64,000 bases of DNA from Candidatus Woesearchaeota archaeon. GTDB lineage: Archaea; Nanobdellota; Nanobdellia; Woesearchaeales; GW2011-AR15. The DNA lies in assembly GCA_014729915.1 (NCBI GenBank), contig WJJD01000058.1, forward strand, positions 18,293-82,292, written 5' to 3'. The notes below the pieces were generated by a model that had not been told where the DNA came from, searched no databases, and worked only from the letters and a program-made list of their open reading frames with translations. Shown piece by piece: positions 33,562 to 60,077 of this stretch. Both the position numbers and the translations under genes were made by a program. Each line of letters opens with the position of its first letter. Position 1 is the stretch's first letter.

Positions 33562-34506
33562 ATGAAAAAAAATAAATTCAATAAAAAAACTTTAATGCTT
33601 ACGATAGGTCTGCTTATCTGCTTTATCTTTTTATTCTCCTGGCTTTCCTTATTAAAGATTCCAAAAGCAACAAGTTATCTAGGGGCTGATATAAACCAGA
33701 CACTAAATACAACTGTAAATATTACAAATGCACAGCCAGAAGTAAGAACCGTTGCAATGGATTCTCCTATTGATCTTGAGGCATACGGAAACAGAACAGT
33801 GTACTGCAATACAACTGTTTTTGACTGGGATAATGACACCCTTACTGTAAATGCCAGCTTTTACATTGAGGGCCTTACAGATCCATTTTCCTCTGTAGAC
33901 AATAACAATAAGTATGATAATGTAACCTGCACCAGAACAAGTCCGCAGGACAGGGAAATGAATTATACCTGTACAGTTGACATGACTTATTACACTGACA
34001 ACTCTTCGCAATGGAGATGCAATGTAACAGCAAAGGATGATGATAATGCAACTCACACCAATGTTTCGGATTATGCAGTAATAAATCCCCTGACAGCAAT
34101 CTATGTTCCCGGAGTCCTTGATTTCGGGGAGCTTGCAGTAAACGATATATCTGATGATAAATTGGCAAATATAACAAATGCAGGGAATAGGAATATCAGC
34201 ATTTATGTTGAGGGATGGGGTGCAGAAAAAGGAGACGGGCTTGCTATGAACTGTTCTTATGGTTCAATTGATTCAAGCTATGAAAGATATAATCATACAC
34301 AGTCCGGATTGAGCTGGGAAACTGAATTAAAGGAAGTTACAAATGAATCTGTAAGGATTGATGGTTTTACAGTATTTCACAGGTTTGATGATTCTTCTTC
34401 CTCTGGGTCAACAAATTCAACCTACTGGAAATTAAAGATTCCGGCTTTTGCAGGTGGTATTTGCAATGGAAAAATATTATTCACTGCAGAGGATGACGGA
34501 ACCTGA
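33562..34506 (+). CDS. Secreted/anchored ~315-aa protein, paralog family P2, with a 'LLKIP' motif after the N-terminal hydrophobic segment and a C-terminus of ...GGICNGKILFTAEDDGT. I start it at 33562 rather than the track's 33538.
   Basis: The ATG at 33562 immediately follows the upstream stop at 33558-33560 and yields 'MKKNKFNKKTLMLTIGLLICFIFLFSWLSLLKIP'. The protein aligns over its full length with the product of 54872..55780 and with the C-terminal ~300 aa of the product of 56694..60077: 'NQTLNTTVNITNA.PEV', 'PLTAIY[VI]P', 'NITNAGN', 'YWKL[KE]IP'. Confidence 0.7.
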   Translation: MKKNKFNKKTLMLTIGLLICFIFLFSWLSLLKIPKATSYLGADINQTLNTTVNITNAQPEVRTVAMDSPIDLEAYGNRTVYCNTTVFDWDNDTLTVNASFYIEGLTDPFSSVDNNNKYDNVTCTRTSPQDREMNYTCTVDMTYYTDNSSQWRCNVTAKDDDNATHTNVSDYAVINPLTAIYVPGVLDFGELAVNDISDDKLANITNAGNRNISIYVEGWGAEKGDGLAMNCSYGSIDSSYERYNHTQSGLSWETELKEVTNESVRIDGFTVFHRFDDSSSSGSTNSTYWKLKIPAFAGGICNGKILFTAEDDGT

Positions 34507-34515
34507 TTTTTTGAA

Positions 34516-35997
34516 ATGAGAAAATTAATTCATAATTCTGTTTATTTTATTTTTATAATAATTTCGATTTTTATCCCTGTTCTGGATCTTTTTAATATCC
34601 TTCCTGGAGATATAAGTCTCTTATCTAAAATATTGAATTGGATTCTTATAGGAATATTGGTATATCATTTAAGTTTTATAAAAGTTCTTTTTGGAAAAAA
34701 ACAGTATAAAAAAATAAAAGATTTAAAAATAAAATATTATATTCTGGACATAGCAGTCCTCCTGAGTTTCTATATGTTTAATATTTCTGATATAATTTCT
34801 TTTGTCTTAAACCATAAAAAAGAGTTTTTCTATTTTTCCAGGTTTGCCGGAATTATCTCAGGAAATTATATTTTTATTGAGATGTTTTTTTTTAATATTG
34901 CTGCAATTTTCCTGATTTGTGTTTCACTGGTTCTTGGTTTTAGGGTGAAATTCGGAAAGGATTCATTGATGTCTCTTCTTCATGAGGATATTTTGCCAGG
35001 GGGATTTGATAAGAGATTGTTTAGAAGCCTTTCAGTTCTTTTTGTATTGTCAGGAATCTATATAACCTATTTCAGCCTTGTTTTAGAATGGTTCTCTCTT
35101 GTTCTTGATCTTCCTTTTACTCTTGCCGGAATTTTTTTAATAATTTATACATTCAAGAACAAGCATAAGATAAAAGAAAACCAGATAGTTGAAAAATTGA
35201 CTTTTTTTTCAGAATTTTTTGAAGAAAACCTATTGGTTTTTTTTCATAAAAAAGAAAAAATAATGTTTACTTTTTCAGGTCTTTTAGTTCTTCATCTTTT
35301 CACAGATATATTTAATTTTTTACTGCCCTTTCTTACAGGAACCAGGTATAACCTATATTCCGCAATTCTCCAGAAAAACTTCTGGGTAGGAGATTTTATT
35401 ATTAAAGATTTGTCCCTTACAAATATTTTATCTATATTCTGGATTTATTTTCTAATTCTTTTTTTTTTTATCTGTCTTCTGCTTTTCCCAATATATCTTT
35501 GGTACATCTCACTGAATAAAGAAAAACTGAAAATTTCAAGATGGGCTGTTTCACTTTTCTTTTCTTCATTAGTAGTTATCTTAATAAAATCAAACATATA
35601 TTTTGATAGTCTTGGAACAAAGCTCGGACTGACAGGTGTTTATTTTTATTTTTCAAACAAGGCATCATTTCTTCTGGGACACAATTATCTCTCAATACTC
35701 ACATTAACAATCTTTGTTATGATATTTACAATGATAAGGTATCATACTTTAAAAAAAATTATTGAAATTATTGTAATCATAGCAATATTAATAGTTTTTA
35801 GTGAATATACATTGAAATTTTTCAAAAGCATCTTATTTTTTTATTTTGAATCAATTAACACATTAATTAACAATAATATGTTTTTCATACTTGTTTTCAT
35901 AATAATATTTTTTTTATGCTCAGTCATCTTTTATCTTGGTTCATATTTTGTTTTTATAAGCCAGACCATATCAACAATTAAGAGATCATATTTTTAG
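34516..35997 (+). CDS. Polytopic integral membrane protein with about 12 TM helices and unknown function, embedded in the secreted-protein operon
   Basis: 493 aa with more than 10 hydrophobic 18-25-aa segments. No catalytic motif was recognised. Its start lies 10 nt after the preceding gene. Confidence 0.65.
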   Translation: MRKLIHNSVYFIFIIISIFIPVLDLFNILPGDISLLSKILNWILIGILVYHLSFIKVLFGKKQYKKIKDLKIKYYILDIAVLLSFYMFNISDIISFVLNHKKEFFYFSRFAGIISGNYIFIEMFFFNIAAIFLICVSLVLGFRVKFGKDSLMSLLHEDILPGGFDKRLFRSLSVLFVLSGIYITYFSLVLEWFSLVLDLPFTLAGIFLIIYTFKNKHKIKENQIVEKLTFFSEFFEENLLVFFHKKEKIMFTFSGLLVLHLFTDIFNFLLPFLTGTRYNLYSAILQKNFWVGDFIIKDLSLTNILSIFWIYFLILFFFICLLLFPIYLWYISLNKEKLKISRWAVSLFFSSLVVILIKSNIYFDSLGTKLGLTGVYFYFSNKASFLLGHNYLSILTLTIFVMIFTMIRYHTLKKIIEIIVIIAILIVFSEYTLKFFKSILFFYFESINTLINNNMFFILVFIIIFFLCSVIFYLGSYFVFISQTISTIKRSYF

Positions 35998-36005
35998 AAA
36001 AATAA

Positions 36006-36731
36006 TCACGCAAGCTCAATCCAGAAAAAATAAGGAGTAGACTGCTCTCCGGGAAGATCCTTTTCAGGTACAATCATCTGGAAATCATAGTTTTTGAAAT
36101 TAAAACCCTGCTCTTCATCATGCAGAAGAGTTGTATATATAAGGTTAGTTTTATCAGTCAAAAGCACTTCCTGGAACAATGCATCTTCTGTTACTGTCTG
36201 CTGAGTATTGTTGACCCAGGTAGCAGTAGATCTGCATGTGCTGTTTTCAATATAAGTTGTGCCAACATAAAATTCCTTGTGTATTTCATATTCAAACGTG
36301 TTGTTTATGCTGTCTTCATTAGAGAAAGTATGATTCATTGCAGTCTCCTCACCAGAGATTATTGTGTGATTTGCACATTCTATGCTGTTCCAGTCCACAG
36401 AATCATTTCTTGAAGCATAGACCTCTCCTGTGACAGTTGTCAATGACCAGTCATAGATAGTATAGTTATCTGCATCATCAAGAGTGAATTTTCCTGAAAT
36501 ATTACCTACATATGCTTTCCATCTGGGATTTTGGGTCTCGCCATAAAGTATGAGGGTTGTAAACGTCCCGCCCGAAGTATTTACAAATGATGCAGGTTCA
36601 GAGTCTTTAGTCTCTGAATTGCTGTACGGAATCATGGCACCTGTAGGCTCAATTGCATAAGAGATTCTGAATAAGATTGCAAAAAAGACCAGGATAAATC
36701 CTAATATCCGGATTAATCTCTTATTTTTCAT
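36006..36731 (-). CDS. Secreted ~240-aa protein, paralog family P1, ending ...PYFFWIELA
   Basis: Signal peptide 'MKNKRLIRILGFILVFFAILFRISYA'. Core 'RWKAYVGNISGKFTLDDADNYTIYDWSLTTVTGEVYASRNDSVDWNSIECANHTII ... NLIYTTLLHDE'. Confidence 0.75.
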   Translation of the reverse strand: MKNKRLIRILGFILVFFAILFRISYAIEPTGAMIPYSNSETKDSEPASFVNTSGGTFTTLILYGETQNPRWKAYVGNISGKFTLDDADNYTIYDWSLTTVTGEVYASRNDSVDWNSIECANHTIISGEETAMNHTFSNEDSINNTFEYEIHKEFYVGTTYIENSTCRSTATWVNNTQQTVTEDALFQEVLLTDKTNLIYTTLLHDEEQGFNFKNYDFQMIVPEKDLPGEQSTPYFFWIELA

Positions 36732-37242
36732 TTTTGTTCAGAGCTCTTTTGTATGTTGTCCAGATTGTCTGGTAATGTTTGCAGAGAAGATCTGCGATTT
36801 TATTGTAGGAGAGGGTCTTTTTTTCTTTAAGAAACAGAACAATATTTTCCAGCACACTGTAATTTCTTCTCTTAAAAATATCCAGGGGTATAGATATTTC
36901 AGAATCTTTAATTACAAGTTTTTTCAGGAATTTTTTTTTAGAATTAGAATAAGTGCTCCATATTGTCCTGTCATCCCTGTTAAGTTCCTGTGCTATCTCA
37001 TGGTAGCTCATATCTTTGTTCTCTTTTAGAAATTTTACTATTATCTCAAGAGAACTGAGGTTAGGGGTCTTAAAAACAGAGATTGGTACAGAAAGGGATT
37101 CTTTTTTTATGATCCCGAGAACCTCGTCTGTAGAGAGCTGATACTTATCTTTAAAATAAGCATCCACAACTTCTAATGCTTCTACAATCTTGTCATTTTT
37201 CAGTTTTTCTTTCAGAAAAACCCCTCTCCCTTGATGCATCAA
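36721..37242 (-). CDS. Putative transcriptional regulator with two tandem helix-turn-helix units
   Basis: Internal duplication 'SSLEIIVKFLKENKDMSYHEIAQELNRDDRTIWSTYSNSKKKF' and 'SVLENIVLFLKEKKTLSYNKIADLLCKHYQTIWTTYKRALNK', which resembles a sigma-70 region-4/LuxR-type HTH. It overlaps the downstream P1 gene by 11 nt. Confidence 0.45.
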   Translation of the reverse strand: MMHQGRGVFLKEKLKNDKIVEALEVVDAYFKDKYQLSTDEVLGIIKKESLSVPISVFKTPNLSSLEIIVKFLKENKDMSYHEIAQELNRDDRTIWSTYSNSKKKFLKKLVIKDSEISIPLDIFKRRNYSVLENIVLFLKEKKTLSYNKIADLLCKHYQTIWTTYKRALNKNEK

Positions 37243-37517: not shown

Positions 37518-37553
37518 CAGAATAGAAAATTTTTTTCAAAAATTTTCTATACA

Positions 37554-40172: not shown

Positions 40173-40487
40173 ATGAGAAACGCCTCATATAAAAAAAAGA
40201 TAAAGAAAAAAATATACCTTCAGAATATTCTTATTCTGATTTGTGTTGTCCTTCTGGGATACTTGGTTTATGCTAAGTTCAGGCCTGAGATTGTAAAAGT
40301 TCCTGTAAAAGATGACTGCGGGCCTATAGGAAACACGATTTCACACCTGATTTCTGACAATGAAGACTGTGTGAATGCCTGCTCTTCTGCATGCAAATCA
40401 TTTGGCCACGTATATTATAAGAGCAAATTTATCTATAATAATGAAGTAAGATGCAACAATTGCACTTGTCAATGTAAAAAAATTTAA
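40173..40487 (+). CDS. Small membrane-anchored Cys-rich protein (104 aa)
   Basis: TM 'IYLQNILILICVVLLGYLVYA', then a region of 10 cysteines '...DCGPIGN ... EDCVNACSSACKSFGH ... RCNNCTCQCKKI'. Confidence 0.4.
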   Translation: MRNASYKKKIKKKIYLQNILILICVVLLGYLVYAKFRPEIVKVPVKDDCGPIGNTISHLISDNEDCVNACSSACKSFGHVYYKSKFIYNNEVRCNNCTCQCKKI

Positions 40488-40501: not shown

Positions 40502-42307
40502 TTGAGAAATAATAAAGTGAGGGGAAACTGTTTGAATTTAAAAAAATTAATAATAATTCTATTTATTTTTATTGCAATACCTTTTGTTTCAGGACTTGAA
40601 CCGGAGCAGATAATTTCAAACTCAGCTGACTGGCAGGATGTATATTCCACAATGCTTTATTCTGAATTGACAGGAAAATCATCCTATTTTTTAGTAAGTT
40701 CCAGGCATTCAACACTATTGATAGGTCAGTTGTCAAAATCACAAAAAAATACCTGGGTGATTAGTTCTGAAAAAAATCCTTATGTAGTAAGCTATAAACC
40801 TGTACTTGAATCAAAGGGATTTGCTGTTGAGGAATTTGAGTACTCAAATGTCAATCTTGAGATGGCCCGGAAGATAGAAAATATAACGAACTTCATAGTT
40901 CTGGATGATTCATACGGATATAATGCAATATCAGTAGCTCCTTATGCTGTTCTTACTGATTCTTATGTCTTGTTTGCCGACAGAAAAAATATCAACCTCA
41001 TCTCAAATTTCTTAAACACCCGGCAGGTAGAGAGTCTGCTTATTTACGGCCAGGTGGACAGGGAAGTTAAGGAAAGGTTGAGTGTTTTTTCTCCGGAGAC
41101 AATTAACAACGGAGACAGGTTTTTAGACAACCAGGCAATAGTTGATAAATACCAGGAAAAACACATTGAAGTCTATGGGGAGCCAAAAACCCAGGTCATC
41201 TTGACAAACGGGGAATTCATTGAGCAGGAAATTTTATCAGGAGTGGAGCCGGTTGTCTTTATCGGAAGAGCAAATGTGCCGGATCAGGTCCGTGAATATA
41301 TAAAAAACAGCGATATTGAGATAGGAATACTGATTGGAAATGAGCTTATCGGCTCAGCAACATTTATCAGAAGGCAGCTCGGAATAAGTGTTTTTGTAAA
41401 ATTTGCACAGAGTGCAAGAACACCTTCAGGCCCTATTTCTGCAGTTGAGGATCTTGACAGGTTTTATCTTCCAAGATACATTCTAAGCCTTGATTTATAC
41501 AGGGTGAGATACAACAAGATGAATAACCAGGTTTATGTTACATACCAGAATAATGTTGCCTTATCATCATACCTAAAGGGTACCATTACATTAAGATATG
41601 AAGGAGAAACTCAGACTGTTGGGGATAGTGAACCTGTTTTTATTGACAAGAACGAATATAAGACAATTGTGTATGACATTGATCCTGTAAGCGCAGAACA
41701 GATCCGGGCAGAAGTCTTTACTATTTATGGCGAAAGCAGGAAATCATTAGAGTATACATTAAGAGAGACAGTTGATGTTGAGACAGTAAATATCCTTGAT
41801 AATTCTGAAATAGAGATTGTAAATGTAAGGTATGACAGGAGAAAAGGAGAGTTTCTCATTGATATAAAAAACACAGGAAATGTTGATGTGTTTGTTGATC
41901 TGGAGTTAGTTGATATTCTGATAAATGATGAACTCAGGACATTTGGTCCTGAAGAAGTTTCTTTCATAGAAAAAGGAGAGGTTGAGACAATCATGGTGGA
42001 AGTTGAGATGGCTGAAGAGGATTTTGAGAACAACCCCAAAGTAAGGCTTACAGCTTATTACGGAGAAAGGGAAAGAAACCTTGTAAATGTGATTTCAGGC
42101 GAATATGATTATTCATTTACTGGTTTTGGTTATCTTACTGGCCGGCTCATAAAGGATATCGGCGGATCAGCAGTCACATTCGGTCCGATAATCATAATTC
42201 TTCTTCTTTTGATATTGATTATAGGCATGAAAAAGAAATGTCCCGACTGCAATGAAATCAACTCATTAAGAAGCAAAAAATGCAAAAGATGCGGCAGAGA
42301 GATCTGA
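40502..42307 (+). CDS. Secreted 601-aa protein with a signal peptide, a C-terminal TM helix and a short cytoplasmic 4-Cys zinc ribbon
   Basis: '...LIIILFIFIAIPFVSG' signal peptide. Three internal ~100-aa repeats. C-terminus 'GPIIIILLLLILIIGMKKKCPDCNEINSLRSKKCKRCGREI'. Confidence 0.6.
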   Translation: MRNNKVRGNCLNLKKLIIILFIFIAIPFVSGLEPEQIISNSADWQDVYSTMLYSELTGKSSYFLVSSRHSTLLIGQLSKSQKNTWVISSEKNPYVVSYKPVLESKGFAVEEFEYSNVNLEMARKIENITNFIVLDDSYGYNAISVAPYAVLTDSYVLFADRKNINLISNFLNTRQVESLLIYGQVDREVKERLSVFSPETINNGDRFLDNQAIVDKYQEKHIEVYGEPKTQVILTNGEFIEQEILSGVEPVVFIGRANVPDQVREYIKNSDIEIGILIGNELIGSATFIRRQLGISVFVKFAQSARTPSGPISAVEDLDRFYLPRYILSLDLYRVRYNKMNNQVYVTYQNNVALSSYLKGTITLRYEGETQTVGDSEPVFIDKNEYKTIVYDIDPVSAEQIRAEVFTIYGESRKSLEYTLRETVDVETVNILDNSEIEIVNVRYDRRKGEFLIDIKNTGNVDVFVDLELVDILINDELRTFGPEEVSFIEKGEVETIMVEVEMAEEDFENNPKVRLTAYYGERERNLVNVISGEYDYSFTGFGYLTGRLIKDIGGSAVTFGPIIIILLLLILIIGMKKKCPDCNEINSLRSKKCKRCGREI

Positions 42308-44092: not shown

Positions 44093-44362
44093 TTGTTAAT
44101 ATACTGCATGGAAAATTTTTTTAAGGGATTGATTGATAAAAAAACATTAAGGATTCTAAATCTGCTTTTTGAACACGGAGATGACCTTTGGCACATAAAA
44201 AAGATTTCAATAGAGTCAGAAGTGCCCTTATCAACCACCTTTAGAATAATAAAAAAATTTTTGAGATTAAATATTGTTGAAAAAAGTCTTGTCGGGAAAT
44301 TAAAAATATATAAGCTGGCAAAAAACAAAAAAACAGACTATTTAAAAAGAGTTTTAAAATGA
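44093..44362 (+). CDS. Small winged-helix DNA-binding transcriptional regulator of the ArsR/TrmB type
   Basis: 'KKTLRILNLLFEHGDDLWHIKKISIESEVPLSTTFRIIKKFLRLNIVEK' has the helix/turn/recognition-helix/wing pattern. An alternative start is at Met6 (44108). Confidence 0.45.
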   Translation: MLIYCMENFFKGLIDKKTLRILNLLFEHGDDLWHIKKISIESEVPLSTTFRIIKKFLRLNIVEKSLVGKLKIYKLAKNKKTDYLKRVLK

Positions 44363-45048
44363 AAAAAATAATCTTAGTCTTTTCAGTAATTACTTTTTTA
44401 TTATTATTTATCTTTTCTTCCCTTTTGTTTTTTGATGAATTGAAACTAATTAATAACAGGATAACCGGCGCAGCTGAGCTGGATACTGCTGTAATCATAA
44501 TAAATGTGAGTTCTGCTGTATGCTCCTCTAATTTTTCACAAGGTTATAATCTTGTATCAATACCCTGTGTTCCAAAACCTGCACCAGTTTCAGAAGTTTT
44601 AGAATCAGTTGAAGAAAACATTGTATCTATCCATCATTATGTGCCTTCCTCCGCAGATCCCTGGAAAACATATAATCCGGAGCTTCCTTCCTGGGCAGTG
44701 CAGGATTTAACTGAAATTGACAGGAAAAAATCATACTGGCTCAACCTGGATTCAAACGTGACATTTCAGTTGAATTCAAGCACAGCTTCTCCAAATTATA
44801 TTTATACAAAACAGGGGTGGAACATGATAGGCTATCCCACATTGACCCCTGTAGAAATTGGTGAGGCATTGGTTTCAATCAATCAGAGCTATGATATCCT
44901 ATATTCATACAACACTTTAAACAATTCCTGGGAGGAATATACCTGGAACAGCAGCAAATCTTCAGAACAAAATATTATCAATATGACTCCATATACAGGA
45001 TATTGGATCAAAATGCTTAGAAATGAGACACTGCTCATAGACTGGTAA
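44359..45048 (+). CDS. Hypothetical secreted/anchored protein (229 aa)
   Basis: N-terminal hydrophobic segment 'KIILVFSVITFLLLFIFSSLLFF'. ATGA overlap with the upstream gene. Confidence 0.5.
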   Translation: MKKIILVFSVITFLLLFIFSSLLFFDELKLINNRITGAAELDTAVIIINVSSAVCSSNFSQGYNLVSIPCVPKPAPVSEVLESVEENIVSIHHYVPSSADPWKTYNPELPSWAVQDLTEIDRKKSYWLNLDSNVTFQLNSSTASPNYIYTKQGWNMIGYPTLTPVEIGEALVSINQSYDILYSYNTLNNSWEEYTWNSSKSSEQNIINMTPYTGYWIKMLRNETLLIDW

Positions 45049-45051: not shown

Positions 45052-47544
45052 ATGAAAAAATACATCTTAATATTAATTGCAATCATATTTTTGCAGATGA
45101 ATGTTTCAGCACAAATTCCGGCATACAGGGACCTTCCATTTCTTTCAACAGAATTTTACGGTACTGCAACAGTTTATGATCTTAACAGTACAGCCTTTGA
45201 AGCCGGCACAAGAATAGATGCCTATGCATATGAAACATTATGCGGTACATTTTATATAGAAAATGAAGGCTATTACGGATCATTGACCTGCAGAGCAGAC
45301 GATAATAACACTAATGAGACAGAGGGTGCACTACAGGGCCAGAATATAATATTCAGGATAGATAATCAGACAACTCTTAGCTCAGGAGATACAGTCTGGT
45401 ACCAGGGGGAATTCCAGAGGGTTGATCTTGCATTGGCTCCCGGTTGCCCGAACGGGTGGTGTGAAATAGGAGAGAGCTGCGTTAATTGTCCGGAGGACTG
45501 CGGGGTATGCCCCCCTCCGGGAGCAGGCCAAGGAGGAGAAGGAGGAGACGGGGAAGGAGGTGATTCAGGAGATTCAGATAACAGTGATGAAGAGGATGGA
45601 GGTGCCGGCGAGGATGAAGGAGATTCTGCAGCAGGTGCCGGTTCAGGTGATATCAGTTTCAGAGAAGGAAGAGATACAATGCAGAATCTTTCCATGGAAT
45701 TATGCAAAGAAGACTGGTTCTGCACTGCCTGGATTCCTGACCCCTGCCCTATTTCAGGAGAGCAGACAAGAAACTGCACAGATATCAACAATTGCAATAC
45801 AACTTTTACAAAACCAGAAGAAAAACAGAACTGCACATATGAAGGGACATGTTTTGATTATATATTAAACCAGGATGAGACAGATATTGACTGCGGGGGA
45901 AAAATTTGTGAGGGATGTGAGAATGATAAAAGATGCAAAAAAGACAGAGACTGCGTTTCGGGATTCTGCAATCCTTTTGAAGAGGTCTGCAGAACCCCTG
46001 TCTGTGATGACGGTATAAAAAACCAGGGGGAGCAGGAAATTGACTGCGGGGGTCCCTGTCCACCATGTCATCCTGAAGAGATGCCGATTCTTGAACAACC
46101 CGGAAGAATCATCCGATTTGTCGTGGCAGGATGCGGACCGTTCCCCTGGGGCATATTGATGATATCTTCAGTTGGCATATTATTATGTTATGTTCTTGGT
46201 AAAGTCTATATAAAAAGATATCAAAATAAAAGGAAATTTACCAGGCTGGATAGACTTGATAAGCTGAATAAAAAATACAGGATGGAGCGTTATCTAAACT
46301 TGTTTATTATAAATGGGATACTTGTTATGTTGTCTATTTGTTTATACTTATATTATTTCTGCGAGATCGTGGTATGGATATTTATCATGGTGATGCTTAT
46401 AATTCCTTTAATTACAGGCTTTACAATAAAGCTGCTTGTCTATGATGAAAAACGAAAACAGGAAAGATTCAGGAGACTGATAATATCGCATGAAGAAGAG
46501 TTAAGTAAAATTATCAGGTTAAAGAATACCCAGATAAATGAAATTGAAAAAGATATAATAAACAGATTAGAAAAAATAATTTTTTCAGGTTCGTTAAAAC
46601 CTGCGATGAGAGATCATCTGTCAAGGCTCCTCAAACTTATCAAAACCCACAATAAGATGGATATTTCAGATCCTGATCTTGAAAAAAATATGATAGACAA
46701 AATTGATGAGATAAAAGACAAAAATAACTCCAAAAACAAAATACTCTCACAGGCAATGGATTCTCTTAATCTGTTGAAAAAAATTTTTAATGATAAGGCC
46801 GGTCAGGAAAAGGAATTGGGAAAAGACGAGAAAATTGAAAAAAACATTGAAGAGGGAAGCCAAAATAAAGAAAATAAAGAAATGGATAATCTAAAAAAAA
46901 ACAAAACACATAATTCGGACTATTTTGATGATATTGACGAAAAAGCAGATAAACAGATACTAAAACTCGAAAAAAAACAGATGGAAAAGCAGCTAGAGCG
47001 GGAAGTGGAAAAAAGGCATACAAAAGAACTTCAAACAAAGAAAAAATATGATTATTCAAAAAAAGCAGAAAATCCATTTAAGATAATAAACACACGAATA
47101 GCAAATACAATAAATGAGCTGATAACAGACATAAAAAACATGAACGAATCAGATTATTATTTTCACAATAATGAGCTCAGGAATGACTTTTCAGAATGGA
47201 TAAGCGGAGAATTCGGGTATGGTGCACTGGCTGAAAAAATTAATCATATCAAGGCAAGACAGGATCTTCTTAAAATTCTGGAATCTTCTGGAAAGTATGT
47301 AAAAGACAAAAAAACTGGCAAAAAACTATTCAGGCTCAATAGCGGTAAAACAATAGAGACTATAGATGAATTAAAAAATGAGTTAGGGAAAATGGATGAT
47401 CAGGAATTTTATTTGTATGTGAATGAATTAAGAAATGAATTTTATTATTGGATTAAAAATAAATTGGAAAAAGATAAACTTGCTGAAAAACTAAGATATG
47501 TGAAAACAAAGAAGGAAATGATTGAAATCTTAAAAACATACTAA
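45052..47544 (+). CDS. Membrane protein with a signal peptide, a Gly/Asp/Glu-rich acidic low-complexity region, Cys-rich 'IDCGGPC' repeats, TM helices, and a Lys/Glu coiled-coil cytoplasmic tail carrying two copies of the 'HVNE-KNDFS-W'-type domain
   Basis: Signal peptide 'MKKYILILIAIIFLQMNVSA'. Acidic region 'PPPGAGQGGEGGDGEGGDSGDSDNSDEEDGGAGEDEGDSAAGAGSGD'. Cys-rich 'CFDYILNQDETDIDCGGKICEGC ... CDDGIKNQGEQEIDCGGPCPPC' and 'C.DW.C ... NNC' resembling the 24349 protein. TM segments at 'GILMISSVGILLCYVLG' and 'GILVMLSICLYLYYFCEIVVWIFIMVMLIIPLITGF'. Tail copies 'YYFHNNELRNDFSEWISGEFGYGALAEKINHIKARQDLLKIL' and 'FYLYVNELRNEFYYWIKNKLEKDKLAEKLRYVKTKKEMIEIL'. Confidence 0.75.
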   Translation: MKKYILILIAIIFLQMNVSAQIPAYRDLPFLSTEFYGTATVYDLNSTAFEAGTRIDAYAYETLCGTFYIENEGYYGSLTCRADDNNTNETEGALQGQNIIFRIDNQTTLSSGDTVWYQGEFQRVDLALAPGCPNGWCEIGESCVNCPEDCGVCPPPGAGQGGEGGDGEGGDSGDSDNSDEEDGGAGEDEGDSAAGAGSGDISFREGRDTMQNLSMELCKEDWFCTAWIPDPCPISGEQTRNCTDINNCNTTFTKPEEKQNCTYEGTCFDYILNQDETDIDCGGKICEGCENDKRCKKDRDCVSGFCNPFEEVCRTPVCDDGIKNQGEQEIDCGGPCPPCHPEEMPILEQPGRIIRFVVAGCGPFPWGILMISSVGILLCYVLGKVYIKRYQNKRKFTRLDRLDKLNKKYRMERYLNLFIINGILVMLSICLYLYYFCEIVVWIFIMVMLIIPLITGFTIKLLVYDEKRKQERFRRLIISHEEELSKIIRLKNTQINEIEKDIINRLEKIIFSGSLKPAMRDHLSRLLKLIKTHNKMDISDPDLEKNMIDKIDEIKDKNNSKNKILSQAMDSLNLLKKIFNDKAGQEKELGKDEKIEKNIEEGSQNKENKEMDNLKKNKTHNSDYFDDIDEKADKQILKLEKKQMEKQLEREVEKRHTKELQTKKKYDYSKKAENPFKIINTRIANTINELITDIKNMNESDYYFHNNELRNDFSEWISGEFGYGALAEKINHIKARQDLLKILESSGKYVKDKKTGKKLFRLNSGKTIETIDELKNELGKMDDQEFYLYVNELRNEFYYWIKNKLEKDKLAEKLRYVKTKKEMIEILKTY

Positions 47545-49253: not shown

Positions 49254-49461
49254 ATCTTATATTTTTCATTCTTTAACCCTCATTAAATAGAATACATTAA
49301 AATGAAGAGAAAAAAGAATGAAAAGTCAGTTCTGCTGCCTCGGATGGATTGTCTAAAAAATAATAATGAGAATATTATATATTCCTCCATAGATATATTT
49401 ATATATCAGTATAGTTTTTTATATACTAATATAAAGTAATGTAAATCAAAAGGTAAAGAAA

Positions 49462-51803: not shown

Positions 51804-51968
51804 ATGAGCAAGGTAAAACGGGTAAACATCGAGTTAAAAGAAGACACCCATATGAAGGCAAAGGTAATTGCTGTTCTAAAGGATATAACCCTCAATGAAT
51901 TTTTTGAATCAGCTATTGAGAAATATATAGATGAAAACAAGGGTGTCTTAGAAAAGATAAAAGAATGA
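51804..51968 (+). CDS. Small (54 aa) ribbon-helix-helix/CopG-like protein, translationally coupled (ATGA) to the downstream surface protein gene. It is not in the ORF track because it is under 60 aa.
   Basis: 'MSKVKRVNIELKEDTHMKAKVIAVLKDITLNEFFESAIEKYIDENKGVLEKIKE' has a strand-helix-helix pattern. Its stop at 51966-51968 overlaps the ATG at 51965. Confidence 0.4.
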   Translation: MSKVKRVNIELKEDTHMKAKVIAVLKDITLNEFFESAIEKYIDENKGVLEKIKE

Positions 51969-54850
51969 GGAAAAATTTTTTTTTAACCGGAATTGTAATG
52001 TTTTTTCTTATTCCTGTTGCTCACTCTCTCGGATCAATTTCAACCTCAGACCTGACTCCTCGAAATGTTGATCTATGCGGAGAAAATTCCCAATATGTGA
52101 CAATCTCAGCACAGGAAATCTTAAACCTAGAAAATGAGACATTGACATCAGTAAAAGCATCTCTTTACCTGAATGAAGATGCAGGATTGAGTTATGTAAC
52201 TCCGCAGACAGTTGAACTCGGAGATATTTATGCAGACAATTACAGTTCAGTTTCTCCTTCATGGGTTTTGCAGTGTCTCTCACCAAACCAGGGAATATAC
52301 ACTGCATTCATCAACTATACATCAGCAAACAGCTATTTTGCAAGCTCAATTGATCAGGCAAACACAGTGATAACAGTATACGCACAGGATGATATAAACG
52401 GAAACATAACAATAATAGAAAAAGACTCTGAACCTAAACAACCAAGCACGGATATAATCTCAGATAATACACCAACGGTTGTTGCCAGTACAGACAGGGA
52501 TTCAATATGCAGGGGAGCAGTTGATGCTGATAAATCATATGATATCATGGATTTTGTTTTCTATGGTACAGAAAGAGATCATAATTACACTTTTACAAAT
52601 ATTATCTCAGAAGGAAAACATACAATCTATGTAAAATGCAAAGATCTTTTTGGAAAAGTGATGGAAAATTCCATGGAAATATCCTTCCAAGTTGATTCGT
52701 CAGATCCTGAAATTATTATTGAGAGCCCGTTGACAATCTCAAAAGATTATATTAATTTTCATATAACAGTAAGTGAAGAATCAGAATGCAGGTATTCCTT
52801 TTCAGAAGAATCATTTAATAGTAAGATAGGGTTTGATAACCGGGAAAAAATCTCATTTTCAAGTTTGTTAGAGGATCTTAAAAAAGGGGAAAACCCTATC
52901 TATGTTGAGTGCAGGGACATTGTCGGAAATACTGGTAAAAAAAATATAATTGTCTCGGTAGAAAGACCTCCTAGCTGTGAAATAATATTAAGTGATGAAT
53001 CTCCTGTAAAACAGGGAATATTGGAAGTAAAGCTGATTCCCTCAAAAAAATTAAGAGAAATACCTGACTTAAGCTATAGTTATACAGACACTGAAAAATT
53101 CACAAGAGAAATCTCTCTGACAGAGCACTCAGGATATTATAAGGGATTTTTGATAATAGACAACTACGAGACACCGAAAATCGGGGTTTTTGAGTTTTCA
53201 GGATATGATCTCTCGGGAAATAAAGGAACAGAAATAACAAACGGAGCAGATTTTATTGTTGACACTATAAAACCCGGAGGGATTGAAAGCATAAATTCAG
53301 GTACAGATCCTGAAAATAATATTGTATTGAAATGGTTTTATGAAGGAGAAGGAACCCAGAATTTCAATATTTACAGGTCAACAACTCCCGGAGTTACTTA
53401 TATTGATTATTATGATAAGGCAAATATCCAGGAATATACTGATGAGAATCTTAAGTCAGGCACAGAATATTATTACAGGGTTTGTGCAGTTGACAAAGCA
53501 GGAAACATAGGAGAATTATCCAAAGAAGTTTCAGCAGTAGCCCAAACAGGTTTGTCAGATGAAAAAATTCATCAGGAAGATCCGCCAAGACTATCTACAT
53601 TACAGGAATTTAATAAAACACTTAGAGAAATAGAAAGCCTGAAGATAGATATTGACTGGGCAGAGGCAAATCTTGCAGAACAAAAATCACAGGAACCTGC
53701 AGTAACAGATCTTGGCTTATATAAGAATGTAATGGGTTCACAGGAAAAAATAAAACAACTGAAAAATAAATTTGAAAAAACAAATCCATTATCAAATTCA
53801 GATCAAGAACTAAAAGAACTGATTGCAAATACAGAAAAACAGCTTGAAAACCTAAGAAAACAGACACCAGCAAAACTTGAGATAATTAAAAAAACAGAAT
53901 ATATGCAGCCTGTAGCAAAATCAGATATTGATCAGGCAGTAAGGGAAGTTACAAAGGGTCTTAATTTTACAGAAAAACAACTCAAAGAGTATAGAGAAAA
54001 AAATTATGATATACGGGAGAAGATCAGGATCTCTTCACTTGTAAAGACATTATCCATAGAATATCTTGATGAATCCGGGGATTACAGAGTATGGGTTAAT
54101 AAAAATGTCCATTATGAAGATCCTGAACCAGTTTCGGACATAAAACTAGTTGAGATAATTCCAAAGACACTCGCAGGAAACCTCGGTACAGTAAATGTCA
54201 GGACAGCTGATCATGTAATAATAAATGAGGATCCGGTCATTGCCTGGAATATTGATGAGCTGAGCTATGAGAAATTCAATATAAAATATATTGTAATAAC
54301 TCAGGACACATCTGAATCAGCAAAAAACACAAAGACAATCGGCCTATTAAAATTTGATGACATGTTAATGCAATCACCCAGTTTAATCACAGGTTTTTCA
54401 ACTACACTCACAAGGATATCACCATTCAACATCATCCAGACAATAGGAGTCTTTATAGGAATAATGCTTGTAATCAGCCTGTTTATGTATTATCTTGCAG
54501 CAATCAAAGAGATAGATATAGGAGGCAGATACCTGGACAGGATAAAAAATTTCAGAAAAGAACAAAGACAGCAAATAAAACCTGTCTCAATGAGAAATTA
54601 TTCTTTATTGACATCACCTGAACAATATTTCTATCTTGCAAACGGAGATGTCATAAGAAGCTTAGGAGAGTTTTTTAATATGCTTGAAGAGATGGGTGAT
54701 TCAATATTTTATACTCATGTAAATGAACACAAAAATGATTTTTCAAATTGGCTAAGATCAGTATTTAGATTAGATGATGTAGCAGAAAAGATTCAATACA
54801 GCAAATCAAAAAAAGAGATGATAAAGATCTTAGAACAGTACAAAAGATAA
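51965..54850 (+). CDS. Type I membrane surface protein of 961 aa: a signal peptide, Ig-like domains and a fibronectin type III domain, an extracellular coiled-coil, one TM helix, and the cytoplasmic 'HVNE-KNDFS-W' C-terminal domain
   Basis: Signal peptide 'MRKNFFLTGIVMFFLIPVAHS'. FN3 'NIVLKWFYEGEGTQNFNIYRSTTPGVTYIDYYD ... SGTEYYYRVCAVDKAGNIGELS'. TM 'IIQTIGVFIGIMLVISLFMYYLAAI'. C-terminus 'YFYLANGDVIRSLGEFFNMLEEMGDSIFYTHVNEHKNDFSNWLRSVFRLDDVAEKIQYSKSKKEMIKILEQYKR'. Confidence 0.8.
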   Translation: MRKNFFLTGIVMFFLIPVAHSLGSISTSDLTPRNVDLCGENSQYVTISAQEILNLENETLTSVKASLYLNEDAGLSYVTPQTVELGDIYADNYSSVSPSWVLQCLSPNQGIYTAFINYTSANSYFASSIDQANTVITVYAQDDINGNITIIEKDSEPKQPSTDIISDNTPTVVASTDRDSICRGAVDADKSYDIMDFVFYGTERDHNYTFTNIISEGKHTIYVKCKDLFGKVMENSMEISFQVDSSDPEIIIESPLTISKDYINFHITVSEESECRYSFSEESFNSKIGFDNREKISFSSLLEDLKKGENPIYVECRDIVGNTGKKNIIVSVERPPSCEIILSDESPVKQGILEVKLIPSKKLREIPDLSYSYTDTEKFTREISLTEHSGYYKGFLIIDNYETPKIGVFEFSGYDLSGNKGTEITNGADFIVDTIKPGGIESINSGTDPENNIVLKWFYEGEGTQNFNIYRSTTPGVTYIDYYDKANIQEYTDENLKSGTEYYYRVCAVDKAGNIGELSKEVSAVAQTGLSDEKIHQEDPPRLSTLQEFNKTLREIESLKIDIDWAEANLAEQKSQEPAVTDLGLYKNVMGSQEKIKQLKNKFEKTNPLSNSDQELKELIANTEKQLENLRKQTPAKLEIIKKTEYMQPVAKSDIDQAVREVTKGLNFTEKQLKEYREKNYDIREKIRISSLVKTLSIEYLDESGDYRVWVNKNVHYEDPEPVSDIKLVEIIPKTLAGNLGTVNVRTADHVIINEDPVIAWNIDELSYEKFNIKYIVITQDTSESAKNTKTIGLLKFDDMLMQSPSLITGFSTTLTRISPFNIIQTIGVFIGIMLVISLFMYYLAAIKEIDIGGRYLDRIKNFRKEQRQQIKPVSMRNYSLLTSPEQYFYLANGDVIRSLGEFFNMLEEMGDSIFYTHVNEHKNDFSNWLRSVFRLDDVAEKIQYSKSKKEMIKILEQYKR

Positions 54851-54871: not shown

Positions 54872-55780
54872 ATGAAAAAAGAAAAAATAGGAACATATAG
54901 GGGGTTGGTTTTTTTATTTTGTTTATTTGTTATGTGGATATATTTGCTGAAAATTCCGGTAATTTCAGCGCAGGCAGATGGAAACCAGACATTGAACACA
55001 ACAGTGAATATAACAAATGCAGCACCTGAAGTAAAAGACATAAGATGTCCCGCAGCAGTTGATCTTGAGGCATATGGAAATAAGACAGTCCAGTGCAATG
55101 TGACAGTATTTGATTACGACAACAACACAAACATAGTCAATGCTACATTTTATTTTAATACTGTAGCAGCAGAAGATCCGGACAATAAGCTCAACCACTA
55201 TACAAACAGTTCATGTGTGAATGAATCACCTCAGGATAACGAGATGAACTTTTCATGCACGTTTGATCTGATTTATTTTGCAAATAACGGTTCCTGGTAT
55301 TCAAATGCAACCGCTTATGATGACCAGGATGCTTCAGGAAATAACATCTCTGATTCCATTAACGTAAACCCATTGACAGCCATTTACATACCGACTGATA
55401 CAGTTCTTGATTTCGGAGAGCTCGAGACAGGACAGACTTCGGGAGATAAAGAAGCAAACATCACAAACGCAGGAAACATCCAGATCAACATAAGTGTTCA
55501 GGGATGGGCAAATACTAAGGGAGATGATCTTGCGATGGATTGTGAATATGGAACTATTGACAGGACATATGAAAAATATGCAGTTACGTCAGGAGAATTA
55601 TTTTCAGCAATGACGGAGCTTCCATTAAATGACGAGATGATTGCAGGCTTGTTTATTGAAAGGCAGACAGCAGACGGATCATTAAAAACAAATACAACTT
55701 ATTGGAAACTGGAGATTCCGCCGAGTGCCGGCGGGATATGCGAGGGAAAACTGTTGTTTACAGCAAGTGCAAAAGAATAG
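54872..55780 (+). CDS. Secreted/anchored ~300-aa protein, paralog family P2, ending ...GGICEGKLLFTASAKE
   Basis: '...WIYLLKIPVISAQADGNQTLNTTVNITNAAPEV ... PLTAIYIPTDTVLDFGELE ... NITNAGNIQINISVQGW ... DDLAMDCEYGTID ... TYWKLEIPPSAGGICEGKLLFTA' is collinear with the product of 33562..34506. Confidence 0.7.
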   Translation: MKKEKIGTYRGLVFLFCLFVMWIYLLKIPVISAQADGNQTLNTTVNITNAAPEVKDIRCPAAVDLEAYGNKTVQCNVTVFDYDNNTNIVNATFYFNTVAAEDPDNKLNHYTNSSCVNESPQDNEMNFSCTFDLIYFANNGSWYSNATAYDDQDASGNNISDSINVNPLTAIYIPTDTVLDFGELETGQTSGDKEANITNAGNIQINISVQGWANTKGDDLAMDCEYGTIDRTYEKYAVTSGELFSAMTELPLNDEMIAGLFIERQTADGSLKTNTTYWKLEIPPSAGGICEGKLLFTASAKE

Positions 55781-56061: not shown

Positions 56062-56100
56062 CTGGAAAGTCAGGTCATTGGGTTCAGCCCAGTTCTTAAT

Positions 56101-56693: not shown

Positions 56694-59600
56694 TTGCTGA
56701 ACAAAAGCTCTGTTCTTAAGAGATCGAAATTTTCACTTATTCTCCTTGTTTTAATAGTATTAATGTTATTTTCGGGATCAGTAAAATCAACCTCAGTCAA
56801 CACAAATATTAAAGAAAATAATCAGTTTAACATAAACGCTATCTCTACAGGGAAAACTTATTTTTTATTTGAAAAAGAAAATTATATTTTAAAAATATGG
56901 GCAAACGGAACAAGGAGATGGTATCCCGGAAAAGATCCTGGATCATATATTGAGTTCGGTACTCCTGAAACTAGGTTTGAGAATGGAGAATGGAGAAAAA
57001 TATCCCTAAAACATCCTGTTAAAAAACCCGGATCCATTGAGTGGAATCTTACAGATTATAAGATACGGTATGACATTTTAAGAAATAAAATAAAATTTAA
57101 CATTCGAATAAAAAATAATAATACAGGAAATATTTTGAGATGGAAAATCAATTCCCGAAATCTTTTAATCATAGAAAATGATAATTTTTGGAACCTTTTC
57201 AGCAAATCAGACAGCAGAAACGCCGGGAAAATAACTCATCCTTTTATCTGGAGGGATAAATCAGGCGAACTTGAAAATTATCGGTATCTTAAACTGAAAA
57301 AAATAGGGAATCATGCATATATGAATTTTGATTTGCAGGGATTACAATACCCTGTTGATATTGATCCTACTTTTGAGACCCAGCCTGCCCCTTCAGACGG
57401 GAAAGATACCTATCTTTCAAGTGATAATGCAGATACAAATTACGGCTCAAATGAATTTGATTATGCAATAGGCAGAGAAGGAGCAACCAATGTGATGCGT
57501 GCATTGATAGAATTTAATTTATCCAATATTTCGTCCGGTTATACATGCAGTAATGCAACTTTATCTTTGTATTGCAATTATCTTGATGCAAATGCATATA
57601 ATTCACTGGTTGGAGTTTATGAATTAAGGAGCGGGAGATCTACCTGGGTTGAGGGAGAGGCAACATGGAATGATTATGCAAGCGGATCATCCTGGACAAC
57701 AGGTGGTGCTGATTCGACAACAGAGGACCGGCTTGCTGCGAGTATAGCAACATTCAATGCTCCCGCCTCAAGCGGTAACTGGATAAATATTTCCTTAAAT
57801 ACCACAGAGGTTGAGGACTGGTTCGGAGACTCAAATGAGAATTACGGATTAATCATTATTATGGATGATGAAACAACAGGCTGGACAAAAGTTACATTCA
57901 GGTCATCTGATTATACCTCAGATACCTCCCTGCGCCCGAAACTGGTTGTTGATTATTCAGAATCCACGGGTAATTCCGTCCCTGTAATTAACCAGGTACA
58001 ATGTGAAATCAATTCCAGTTCAAATTGGCATGCATGTAGTGATGCTTCTGTCTGGGATTCTGAAATACTGCAGGTCAGAGTCAACTGCACAGATACAGAC
58101 AGCCAAATATTAAATGTAACCTACAACCTTTCAAACGTTGCTGATTCAGATACGAAATTCAGTTCTCTTAACGCGACCTCTTCTTCAGGAGACTGGTGGT
58201 ATTTTGATAATTCTGATTACCTTGTACAGGATTCGGGATTATTTAATCTTGATATTGTGTGCAATGACGGCACAGGTTCAGCACAGGAAACTATTGAGTG
58301 GATAACCCCCTGGGGAATCCTGAATACTTCATGGAGAGAACCGGTGGACAGTACAAATGTTTCAAAAAACAGGTTTACAACATTTAGCTCTCTTACAGAA
58401 TGTTTTCTGGGAGAATGCGGTGACGTGAATATCACTCTTGATCCTATTGTCGAAAAGCAGCCGGATGCTGCTGAAGGAAAGGATACGCAGTTGTCAGGCA
58501 GCAATGCTGATACAAATTATGGTTCAGCTGAATTTAGTTATTCAATCGGAGTGAATGGTGCTTCAGATATTTTAAGGGCACTCATAGAATTCAATCTTTC
58601 TGAAATACCTTCTGGATCTACATGTAATCAGGCAACACTTTCCTTATACAGCAATTATCTTGATGCAAATGCATATAATGATCCCGGCAAAATTTATGAA
58701 TTAAGAAGCGGGAGATCTGCCTGGGTTGAGGGAGAGGCAACATGGAATGATTATGCAAGCGGATCATCCTGGACAACAGGTGGTGCTGATTCGGTAACAG
58801 AGGACCGGCTTGTTGCGAGTATAGCAACATTCAATGCTCCCGCCTCAAGCGGTAACTGGGTAAATATTTCCTTAAATACCACAGATGTTGAGGACTGGTT
58901 CGGGGACTCAAATGAGAATTACGGATTAATCATTATTATGGATGATGAAACAACAGGCTGGACAAAGGTCTCTTTCAGGCCTTCAGATTATGCCGCAGAT
59001 GTTTCTTTAAGACCAAAAATTACTATTAATTATACTGAAGCAGCAGATTCAGGGATACAGGATAAAGGGTTTGCAATCAATACTACTCCGGGAGCTGTGC
59101 CTTTCTGGACATCTTCCTCAAATCCTCAACAATGTGTTAATTTAAAACCAGGTGATGCATGCCAGAAAAGCTGGGATGTGAATGCCACGGGAAAGATTGG
59201 AGATACATATAGGTTTTATGTGATCTCTGATCCGACAACATATTCAGCAAATATTGATACAAATGAGTCAGACAGGATAAACATAACAATTGAGTCAGAG
59301 CCTGAGCAAAATTCTGTACCTTGGGTATCAAGTTTGGATATTGAAAATCCTGTAAACCTTTTGGCAGCATCAAACAAGACAGTATACTGTCAGGGAACAA
59401 TCAATGATGCTGACGGGCATTCAGATATCACAGGAGTTAATGCTACTTTATTTAATTCTGGCCCGGGATTAACAGAATCAAGTCCTGACAACAGGAGTTC
59501 TCATTATACAAATACTTCATGCAGCCTGTTTAATCAGGCAGGCAACTCTCTTGATTTTAATTGTACTTTTGATCTTTCTTATTTTGCAGTAAACGGAACA

Positions 59601-60077
59601 TGGCAATGCAATGTCACTGTAATTGATTCAGAAAATGCAAAAAATTCTTCAAAACAGGCTGCAACTATAAACGAGCTTCTGGCAATCTCGATTGATCCAG
59701 ATGTTGTTGATTACGGCGATATGAATATTAATGAGGAATCAGATGATTTTTATGTAAATTTTACAAATTACGGGAATGTGATTCTTGATCTAGAGATGTT
59801 CGGATATGCAGACGCAGAAGAAGATAATCTTTCTATGGATTGTGATACTGGCTCAATTTCAAATTATTATCAGAGATATGCATTAACAGAGCTTAATCTG
59901 TGGCAGGACATGTCTGCTTTATACGGAAAAACAAATCCTGTAAATCTTGATTTTAATCTTTCAGCCGGAAACCAGGAGCAGGAATCTGTTGATTCACTCT
60001 ATTGGAAATTAAAGATTCCCTATAATACAAAAGGCACCTGCAGCGGAAAGATAGTATTCACAGCAGTGAGCGGGTGA
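56694..60077 (+). CDS. Secreted 1,127-aa mosaic surface protein: a signal peptide; two tandem ~360-aa domains possibly related to the DNRLRE/CBM96 type ('W.E..ATWN'); Ig-like modules shared with the giant protein; and a C-terminal P2-family module ending ...GKIVFTAVSG
   Basis: Signal peptide 'MLNKSSVLKRSKFSLILLVLIVLMLFSGSVKS'. The duplicated block 'GKDT.LS..NADTNYGS.EF.Y.IG..GA...MRALIEFNLS ... ATLSLY.NYLDANAYN ... YELRSGRS.WVEGEATWNDYASGSSWTTGGADS.TEDRL.ASIATFNAPASSGNW.NISLNTT.VEDWFGDSNENYGLIIIMDDETTGWTKV.FR.SDY' occurs twice. 'CEINSSSNWHACSD ... WITPWGILNTSW ... ECFLGECGDVNITLDP' resembles giant-protein modules. The C-terminal 300 aa are collinear with the P2 proteins. Confidence 0.8.
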   Translation: MLNKSSVLKRSKFSLILLVLIVLMLFSGSVKSTSVNTNIKENNQFNINAISTGKTYFLFEKENYILKIWANGTRRWYPGKDPGSYIEFGTPETRFENGEWRKISLKHPVKKPGSIEWNLTDYKIRYDILRNKIKFNIRIKNNNTGNILRWKINSRNLLIIENDNFWNLFSKSDSRNAGKITHPFIWRDKSGELENYRYLKLKKIGNHAYMNFDLQGLQYPVDIDPTFETQPAPSDGKDTYLSSDNADTNYGSNEFDYAIGREGATNVMRALIEFNLSNISSGYTCSNATLSLYCNYLDANAYNSLVGVYELRSGRSTWVEGEATWNDYASGSSWTTGGADSTTEDRLAASIATFNAPASSGNWINISLNTTEVEDWFGDSNENYGLIIIMDDETTGWTKVTFRSSDYTSDTSLRPKLVVDYSESTGNSVPVINQVQCEINSSSNWHACSDASVWDSEILQVRVNCTDTDSQILNVTYNLSNVADSDTKFSSLNATSSSGDWWYFDNSDYLVQDSGLFNLDIVCNDGTGSAQETIEWITPWGILNTSWREPVDSTNVSKNRFTTFSSLTECFLGECGDVNITLDPIVEKQPDAAEGKDTQLSGSNADTNYGSAEFSYSIGVNGASDILRALIEFNLSEIPSGSTCNQATLSLYSNYLDANAYNDPGKIYELRSGRSAWVEGEATWNDYASGSSWTTGGADSVTEDRLVASIATFNAPASSGNWVNISLNTTDVEDWFGDSNENYGLIIIMDDETTGWTKVSFRPSDYAADVSLRPKITINYTEAADSGIQDKGFAINTTPGAVPFWTSSSNPQQCVNLKPGDACQKSWDVNATGKIGDTYRFYVISDPTTYSANIDTNESDRINITIESEPEQNSVPWVSSLDIENPVNLLAASNKTVYCQGTINDADGHSDITGVNATLFNSGPGLTESSPDNRSSHYTNTSCSLFNQAGNSLDFNCTFDLSYFAVNGTWQCNVTVIDSENAKNSSKQAATINELLAISIDPDVVDYGDMNINEESDDFYVNFTNYGNVILDLEMFGYADAEEDNLSMDCDTGSISNYYQRYALTELNLWQDMSALYGKTNPVNLDFNLSAGNQEQESVDSLYWKLKIPYNTKGTCSGKIVFTAVSG
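57361..59040 (+). repeat. Tandem intragenic duplication (2 x ~1.08 kb) with a ~270-nt core that is about 97% identical at nucleotide level
   Basis: nt ~57615-57890 versus ~58692-58967 (offset 1077): 'ggagcgggagatctacctgggttgagggagaggcaacatggaatgattatgcaagcggatcatcctggacaacaggtggtgctgattcg...' is nearly identical in both copies. The flanks have diverged. Confidence 0.75.

Follow-up and report, generated by a model that had tools for sequence, protein, structure and literature searches.

The locus treated here raises the question of why one protein module stands alone in two genes and forms the C-terminal end of a much larger product in a third. The module is called P2, and the window is a stretch of 64,000 nucleotides (GC ~35%) from an 82-kb contig in a metagenome-assembled genome (MAG) of Candidatus Woesearchaeota, a lineage of DPANN archaea. 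All coordinates are window positions. How DPANN archaea such as Woesearchaeota build their envelopes and attach to their partners is largely unknown, and their surface proteins are mostly annotated as 'hypothetical'. Literature searches on Woesearchaeota surface proteins and on DUF5752 gave nothing specific. The copies of P2 are listed below, where A and B are the free proteins and C is the product that carries the fused module:

33562..34506, plus strand: A (P2-A), 314 aa, NCBI GF327_03655; helix, linker, two beta-sandwiches and 19 sequons
54872..55780, plus strand: B (P2-B), 302 aa, NCBI GF327_03765; AlphaFold2 (AF2) model with pLDDT 93.8
56694..60077, plus strand: C, mosaic secreted protein of 1,127 aa, characterised by NF033679 and Pfam matches
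59241..60077, plus strand: P2 module in C, residues ~850-1127 (profile hidden Markov model (HMM) 850-1125, E=9e-92; BLASTP)

Likeness and fold of the P2 copies

The open reading frames (ORFs) at all three places encode the products that the initial annotation assigned to them. In BLASTP with compositional adjustment, A and B are collinear end to end at 50% identity (313 columns, E=1e-94), and both match residues ~841-1124 of C at 36% identity, B with E=2e-46 and A with E=2e-40. The full-length relationship claimed earlier is thus borne out, and the start of the module in C moves from ~830 to ~850 (HMM 850-1125; BLAST from 841). Searches of the window by tblastn and profile HMM find exactly three copies, all inside 27 kb.

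These proteins contain 9.6-11.5% Asn, and Thr and Ser are also abundant. An artefact of this common composition, named beforehand in the initial annotation as the explanation that would undo the match, can practically be dismissed. The significance survives compositional adjustment, and Smith-Waterman comparison with 200 shuffles of one partner gives z values of 81 (A-B), 52 (B-C) and 46 (A-C), the real scores being 394-677 as against a top shuffled score of 75. Asn/Thr/Ser-rich composition therefore does not explain the match. Moreover, 16 columns are invariant in 47 homologs, five of them Cys. The copies show no sign of recent gene conversion, as their DNA is just 67-73% identical and only in short patches.

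P2 comprises ~265 aa, with a short conserved lead-in (h-N-h-T-x-N-x-x-P) followed by two Ig-like beta-sandwich domains, D1 and D2. The AlphaFold2 model of B, a monomer prediction from the alignment of 47 homologs, reaches a pLDDT of 93.8 and a pTM of 0.78. It places a membrane helix, a linker of ~20 residues with conserved sequons, and the two sandwiches in this order:

54884-54967, plus strand: membrane helix of B, residues 5-32 (AF2 model)
55028-55366, plus strand: domain D1 of B, residues ~53-165 (AF2 model)
55379-55771, plus strand: domain D2 of B, residues ~170-300 (AF2 model)

Invariant in the 47 aligned sequences are the Cys residues C75, C115, C129, C224 and C290, the motif N-I-T-N-A-G-N, and G292, F296 and A298 near the end. 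A, B and C finish with the ...GK[IL][LV]FTA strand and 2-6 further residues. The hydrophobic terminus seen by the initial annotation is real (C-x-G-K-[IL]-[LV]-F-T-A), but it is the last beta-strand of D2, E293-300 in the model of B, and not a membrane anchor. Similarly, the LLKIP motif after the N-terminal hydrophobic segment is identical in A and B, but LLKIP itself is confined to the two copies of this genome. It is their instance of W-x3-[LIF][LIF]-x2-P, which ends the membrane helix in close P2 orthologs.

No family for the P2 module was found in Pfam, NCBIfam, or a profile search of PDB sequences. Its fold matches generic tandem Ig-like, FnIII and macroglobulin (MG) domains, including Salmonella alpha-2-macroglobulin (4u48), ICAM-1 (1p53), an RTX adhesin (5irb), Vibrio RbmA (4kkq/4be5) and Fab light chains. 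From the helix, the beta-sandwiches and the N-x-S/T sequons (19 in A, 16 in B), P2 is read as an extracellular and, by prediction, heavily N-glycosylated module, which belongs to a common fold class and to an undescribed sequence family. The D2 motif LDFGEL..G....ANITNAGN merely resembles a CARDB-class sandwich. A and B together with 45 homologs have no consistent matches to CARDB (PF07705) or related Ig-like Pfam families, and the same search detects CARDB in the product of 26498..29650 (50.2 bits) and in the C-terminal part of the giant protein of 89..24238 (43.6 bits).

Several other assignments were tried. A PapD-like pilus chaperone is unsupported by the fold searches, and A and B have no NCBIfam match to archaeal type IV pilins or archaellins (class III signal peptide, TIGR02537). 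C-terminal sorting signals (PGF-CTERM/archaeosortase, T9SS Por_Secre_tail) have no Pfam or NCBIfam match in A, B or C, and none of the three has a hydrophobic C-terminal helix. The segment TVNITNA was considered as an orphan donor strand peculiar to stand-alone P2. This idea was dropped because profile matches in fused proteins also begin at positions 33-54, with h-N-h-T before D1.

Ancestry of the copies and the wider family

Recent duplication and shuffling of a cassette within the locus, as in the initial annotation, would account for three copies lying inside 27 kb, for the identical LLKIP in both free copies, and for C having a recently duplicated non-P2 part and an architecture without an ortholog. 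The neighbours of the free genes bear directly on this explanation:

32802..33560, plus strand: P1beta, secreted 252-aa protein, translationally coupled to P2-A
51965..54850, plus strand: 961-aa membrane protein with Big_13 Ig domains, a membrane helix and a DUF5752-like cytoplasmic tail, conserved upstream of P2-B

The ATG of A lies 1 nt past the P1beta stop, and B starts 21 nt past the stop of 51965..54850, with a GGAGGGG Shine-Dalgarno sequence in the gap. In nine related loci (numbered with L below) the ORF after P1beta best matches A, and in eight the ORF after the 51965-type gene best matches B. Both types occur together in five MAGs, in one of them on a single contig (CAZHYZ010000003, loci L011 and L017). 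By these positional orthologs, A and B are old paralogs from two orthologous groups with fixed syntenic places. They lie in a cluster made up entirely of stand-alone proteins, and the module of C lies in an all-fused cluster together with modules of other organisms. This module shares 42-53% identity with those of other fused proteins (53% with P0268, 51% with P0283), but 36% with A or B. Identities of only 36-50% in protein, with the DNA patches given above, are also low for recent copies. Recent local shuffling is already contradicted by orthology and synteny and is highly unlikely. The idea of a modular toolkit holds for the family as a whole; its extension to shuffling within this locus does not. 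At 44-67% identity, P2 orthologs diverge about as fast as the other genes of the cluster do, and nothing points to hypervariability.

Protein C is built of a signal peptide, an N-terminal region, a DNRLRE unit, an Ig-like region, a second DNRLRE unit, an Ig-like domain and P2. Its body matches NF033679 (DNRLRE) in two stretches at 148.1 bits (cut-off 34) and PF06848 (disaggregatase-related repeat) at 66.7 bits (cut-off 33.9), and both families describe the N-terminal body and not the P2 module. One feature of the body is recent:

57616-57915 and 58693-58992, plus strand: 300-nt direct repeat in C, 95% identical, 1,077 nt apart

The repeat spans the two DNRLRE units, and no full-length ortholog of C was found among 5.8 billion proteins. 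Because of this recent duplication and the lack of an ortholog, the mosaic character of C is ascribed to its body rather than to a module newly acquired from A or B. At its C-terminus C has a beta-strand and no membrane helix. The start of C at 56694-56765 is open to correction: NCBI begins the protein at Met24 (1,104 aa) and so cuts off its signal peptide. Since the TTG at 56694 is preceded by AAGAGGT and gives C a canonical signal peptide, KRSKFSLILLVLIVLMLFSGSVKS, the NCBI start is probably too short. As a speculation, the disaggregatase-related domain might target a methanogen-type cell envelope.

In a profile search of 1.84 billion cluster representatives (clusters at 50% identity), P2 has 3,257 matches at E<=1e-3 and 643 at E<=1e-30. 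The best 150 of the 3,257 divide almost evenly into 76 stand-alone proteins (~300 aa) and 74 fused ones (348-4,139 aa), which confirms P2 as a true module that is both free-standing and fused. In each of these 150, 0-9 residues separate the end of the module from the C-terminus. The fused proteins include a large class of ~590 aa, and their otherwise unrelated bodies include DNRLRE, Big_13, Laminin_G_3, DUF2341, Big_7 and MG2 domains or have no recognisable domain. In P0180, D1 is repeated and one terminal D2 follows. Free and fused modules form mostly separate clusters, and the nearest neighbour belongs to the same class in 180 of 201 modules. Every named homolog belongs to Woesearchaeota, Nanoarchaeota or unclassified archaea and lacks any Pfam domain; going by these homologs, P2 is specific to Woesearchaeota/Nanoarchaeota (DPANN archaea).

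The two forms also differ at the N-terminus, as compared over the first 60-70 residues of free and sampled fused proteins. In stand-alone proteins the module begins ~20 residues past a long N-terminal hydrophobic helix, and the uncharged hydrophobic run has a median of 21 residues, versus 16 in the fused proteins. Within the close A/B clade, a Trp and a Pro accompanying this run are conserved. The sampled fused proteins begin with short secretory-type signal peptides that have A-x-A-like sites.

Proposed roles of P2 and its partner P1

P2 has a companion module, P1, which is found in P1beta and in three further products:

31907..32734, plus strand: P1alpha, secreted 275-aa protein, first gene of the P1alpha-P1beta-P2 triad
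36006..36731, minus strand: P1gamma, third P1 paralog
26498..29650, plus strand: 1,050-aa surface protein (MG2, CARDB) with a C-terminal P1-like module (P1 profile residues 866-959, E=8e-9)

P1 has more than 268 homologs and no Pfam family. It begins with a predicted cleavable signal peptide, after which come the motif A-[DE]-P-x-G-A and an unmodelled N-terminal extension of ~40 residues, and it has no structural match in the PDB. P1 displays the same free/fused duality as P2 and lies next to P2 in all lineages examined. A P1-like module ends the product of 26498..29650 and, by similarity, the 8,049-aa giant protein of 89..24238, whose C-terminal ~300 aa resemble the CARDB and P1-like end of the former. 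Judged by its profile match, 26498..29650 is the counterpart of C for the P1 module. In addition, the P2-ending giants P0305 and P0291 have long body stretches in common with P1-like-ending giants, so that similar proteins can end in either of the two modules.

The reading favoured here, with a probability of about 45%, is that P2, together with P1, works as a docking or assembly module of the envelope, by which secreted surface proteins stay attached to the cell. P2 would be the common handle and not the variable business end. Stand-alone P2 would be kept in the membrane by an uncleaved signal-anchor and would form a membrane-proximal scaffold with P1 proteins. Secreted proteins ending in P2 or P1 would dock onto this scaffold via module-module (Ig-Ig) contacts, which would keep them on the cell and leave their variable N-terminal parts exposed. 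A constant terminal module behind diverse lectin- or adhesin-like N-terminal partners points to such an anchoring or assembly handle, and the gene pairs are conserved and tightly coupled. Docking is also favoured because the fused proteins have no other anchor on the features examined and the free forms look membrane-anchored and presumably co-expressed with their partners. Further points in its favour are the interchangeable P1-like and P2 ends of the giants, the arrangement in L031 described below, and the unremarkable divergence rate of P2 orthologs.

The following points weigh against docking. The A-Q-A|D site in B, whose helix we infer to remain uncleaved, could be cut. In the fused class of ~590 aa, the predicted +1 residue is Pro, which makes cleavage there uncertain, and the lack of another anchor in fused proteins refers to their first 60-70 residues. 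Moreover, a strict C-terminal position is equally expected of the distal tip domain of an N-terminally anchored protein.

The last point leads to P2 as a distal ligand- or host-binding head of N-terminally anchored proteins, displayed at a distance from ~20 residues in stand-alone proteins up to ~3,900 residues in the giants. The module always occupies the end opposite the N-terminal hydrophobic segment, its tandem Ig-like fold class is common in adhesins, and DPANN archaea rely on attachment to hosts. However, it is the lectin-like parts (Laminin_G_3, DNRLRE) that vary, and they are N-terminal, whereas P2 is constant and evolves no faster than the neighbouring structural genes. The sampled fused proteins begin with short, cleavable-looking signal peptides, and the close coupling with P1beta and with a membrane protein points to a complex at the membrane. 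A head function is therefore unlikely.

A third explanation, which overlaps with docking, has P1 and P2 polymerise into a fibre or an S-layer-like lattice. The free proteins would then be plain subunits and the fused ones decorated subunits that co-polymerise, as FimH and PapG do through their pilin domain. It is in keeping with the free/fused duality of both co-operonic modules, with the N-terminal extension of P1, which recalls donor-strand subunits, with an oligo-T stretch after P1alpha that could set the ratio of major to minor subunits, and with a signal peptidase gene within the cluster. Nonetheless, a polymer remains a doubtful proposition.

The oligo-T-rich stretch, AAAGATTTTTTCTTTTTTTCT, occupies 32735-32765 between P1alpha and P1beta. 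It might act as an archaeal terminator or attenuator, and P1alpha would then be made in larger amounts than P1beta and P2-A. The signal peptidase gene and the P1 extension also prompted a comparison of the P1-P2 operon with donor-strand pili of the TasA, CanA and thread type. Solved structures of TasA/camelysin, cannulae (CanA) and archaeal thread subunits gave no match for P1, and membership was rejected because P1 has no fold match in the PDB.

Among known systems, the SLH, CWB2 (Clostridioides difficile cell-wall proteins) and type IX secretion system (T9SS) C-terminal domains are shared anchoring modules. Like P2, each is one conserved terminal module that serves many unrelated bodies per genome and lineage, and the T9SS domain is also a beta-sandwich at the strict C-terminus. 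In contrast, P2 has no sequence or family relation to any of them (no Pfam or NCBIfam match). It is archaeal, has two domains in ~265 aa, also stands alone with an N-terminal helix and is paired with P1, and its anchoring role is the one we infer above. FimH and PapG are two-domain chaperone-usher adhesins composed of a lectin and a pilin domain. They resemble P2 in that a single gene cluster encodes one module in two forms, as a subunit of its own and at the C-terminal end of an adhesin. P2 belongs to none of SLH, CWB2, the T9SS C-terminal domain or the adhesin pilin domains, which are its nearest analogues functionally.

In Nanobdella aerobiophila, a DPANN archaeon that has been cultivated, the surface proteins are rich in Ig folds and heavily N-glycosylated (bioRxiv 10.1101/2023.10.27.564410). 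As a general type they resemble the P2 proteins in their many sequons, Ig-like folds, N-terminal membrane helix or signal peptide, and lectin-like accessory domains. P1 and P2 modules, or a C-terminal module that is both free and fused, are not described in that study.

What is new here is a large family, of more than 3,000 clusters at 50% identity, whose fold is confidently modelled and which has a strict position rule and conserved gene partners. It yields two domain definitions for annotation, by which giant genes become readable as a variable body with a constant docking end. A bolder proposal is that P1 and P2 are the two paired modules of a surface assembly system that is found throughout Woesearchaeota and has not been described before, in which the free proteins would form the scaffold and giant adhesins would be plugged in by their C-terminal P1 or P2 to make up a host-holding apparatus. 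The conserved cluster spans ~50 kb and includes a signal peptidase and membrane proteins with DUF5752-like tails. This proposal is, for now, an improbable one. The interest of the result rises if P1 and P2 are indeed the core of a DPANN attachment apparatus; if P2 is merely another Ig-like spacer, the result is ordinary.

The surrounding envelope gene cluster

The order of the genes is kept across a Woesearchaeota clade. It runs from the giant gene 89..24238 through 24235..26493, 26498..29650, 30492..31433, P1alpha, P1beta, P2-A and the helix-turn-helix (HTH) gene to P1gamma, an S26 signal peptidase, 40173..40487, 40502..42307, 44359..45048, 45052..47544, 51965..54850, P2-B and a second giant protein. 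Two of its members remain to be listed:

89..24238, plus strand: 8,049-aa giant surface protein in a single 24-kb ORF, with Big_7, Big_13 and CARDB near the end
36721..37242, minus strand: HTH regulator gene, paired with P1gamma

P1alpha-P1beta-P2 triads: This arrangement occurs in the window and in L004, L005, L010, L012, L016-L021 and L023. The HTH gene directly follows P2-A in L017, L019 and L021.

51965-type gene followed by P2: This pair occurs in L001, L002, L007, L008, L011, L013, L014, L022 and L031.

Distant lineages: These have a single triad (L004, L005) or a P1-P2 pair (L024, L030, L031), with homologs of 40502 and 51965 close by. In L031, a free P1-P2 pair and a 51965-like gene are followed by a 438-aa protein ending in P2, so that the 51965-type gene adjoins a fused P2 protein, and then by a 658-aa protein ending in P1.

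Giant protein 89-24238: No signal peptide is present in its first residues, so its true start may lie elsewhere. Its internal repeats match residues 416-586 and 780-930 of C. D1-like repeats were considered in it, but the P2 profile has no match there, and the BLAST matches of C 780-930 stem mainly from the Ig domain that precedes the module.

Product of 34516-35997 (plus strand): This very hydrophobic, polytopic 493-aa protein, encoded at 29% GC with a reversed AT skew, lies between P2-A and P1gamma. It was considered as a conserved partner of P2-A and set aside, as no homolog was found in any related locus and the HTH gene comes straight after P2-A in L017, L019 and L021. This suggests that the conserved cluster received an insertion specific to this lineage.

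DUF5752-like domain: The C-terminal parts of 30492-31433, 45052-47544 and 51965-54850 have this domain in common. It is soluble in one protein, and in the other two it is a cytoplasmic tail behind a membrane helix and a large ectodomain. The common domain suggests, from these architectures, a link of the surface proteins to a cytoplasmic partner.

ORF 51852-51968 (plus strand): This 38-aa ORF, MKAKVIAVLKDITLNEFFESAIEKYIDENKGVLEKIKE, shares an ATGA with the start of 51965..54850. It has no Pfam match, and in L002, L004 and L005 the same place holds an ORF of 51-54 aa with a (sometimes weak) HicB match in Pfam. The ORF may encode a small co-transcribed DNA-binding protein.

Signal peptidase 39337-39840 (plus strand): The divergent S26 enzyme scores below all curated cut-offs, and its gene adjoins P1gamma in L017-L021. 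The cell may use it as a dedicated processing enzyme, or may just have no other signal peptidase.

Pilin-like proteins and transposase: N-termini resembling archaeal type IV pilins are encoded at 43466-43960 (minus strand; KRG|VSTFLGAIILVLVV...; TIGR02537 at 19.4 bits, cut-off 20) and at 37591-39276 (plus strand; KKG|IESVEQWMWIIAGLAIA...), and neither protein turned up in the related loci. The envelope cluster also contains an inserted IS200-like Y1 transposase gene (42562-42912, plus strand; PF01797, 48 bits), which was not seen at the matching place in related loci.

Enzyme genes 48270-51520: Just upstream of 51965..54850 lie genes for a glutathione-synthetase-like ATP-grasp protein, a class-II amidotransferase-like protein and a GCS2-type glutamate-cysteine ligase. 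The latter two are kept upstream of the 51965-type gene in L007 and L008.

Origin of related loci: L011, L013, L017, L020 and L021 are titled 'uncultured Methanosarcinales archaeon' (TPA). They show the Woesearchaeota gene order with 44-65% protein identity, and the label is probably wrong.

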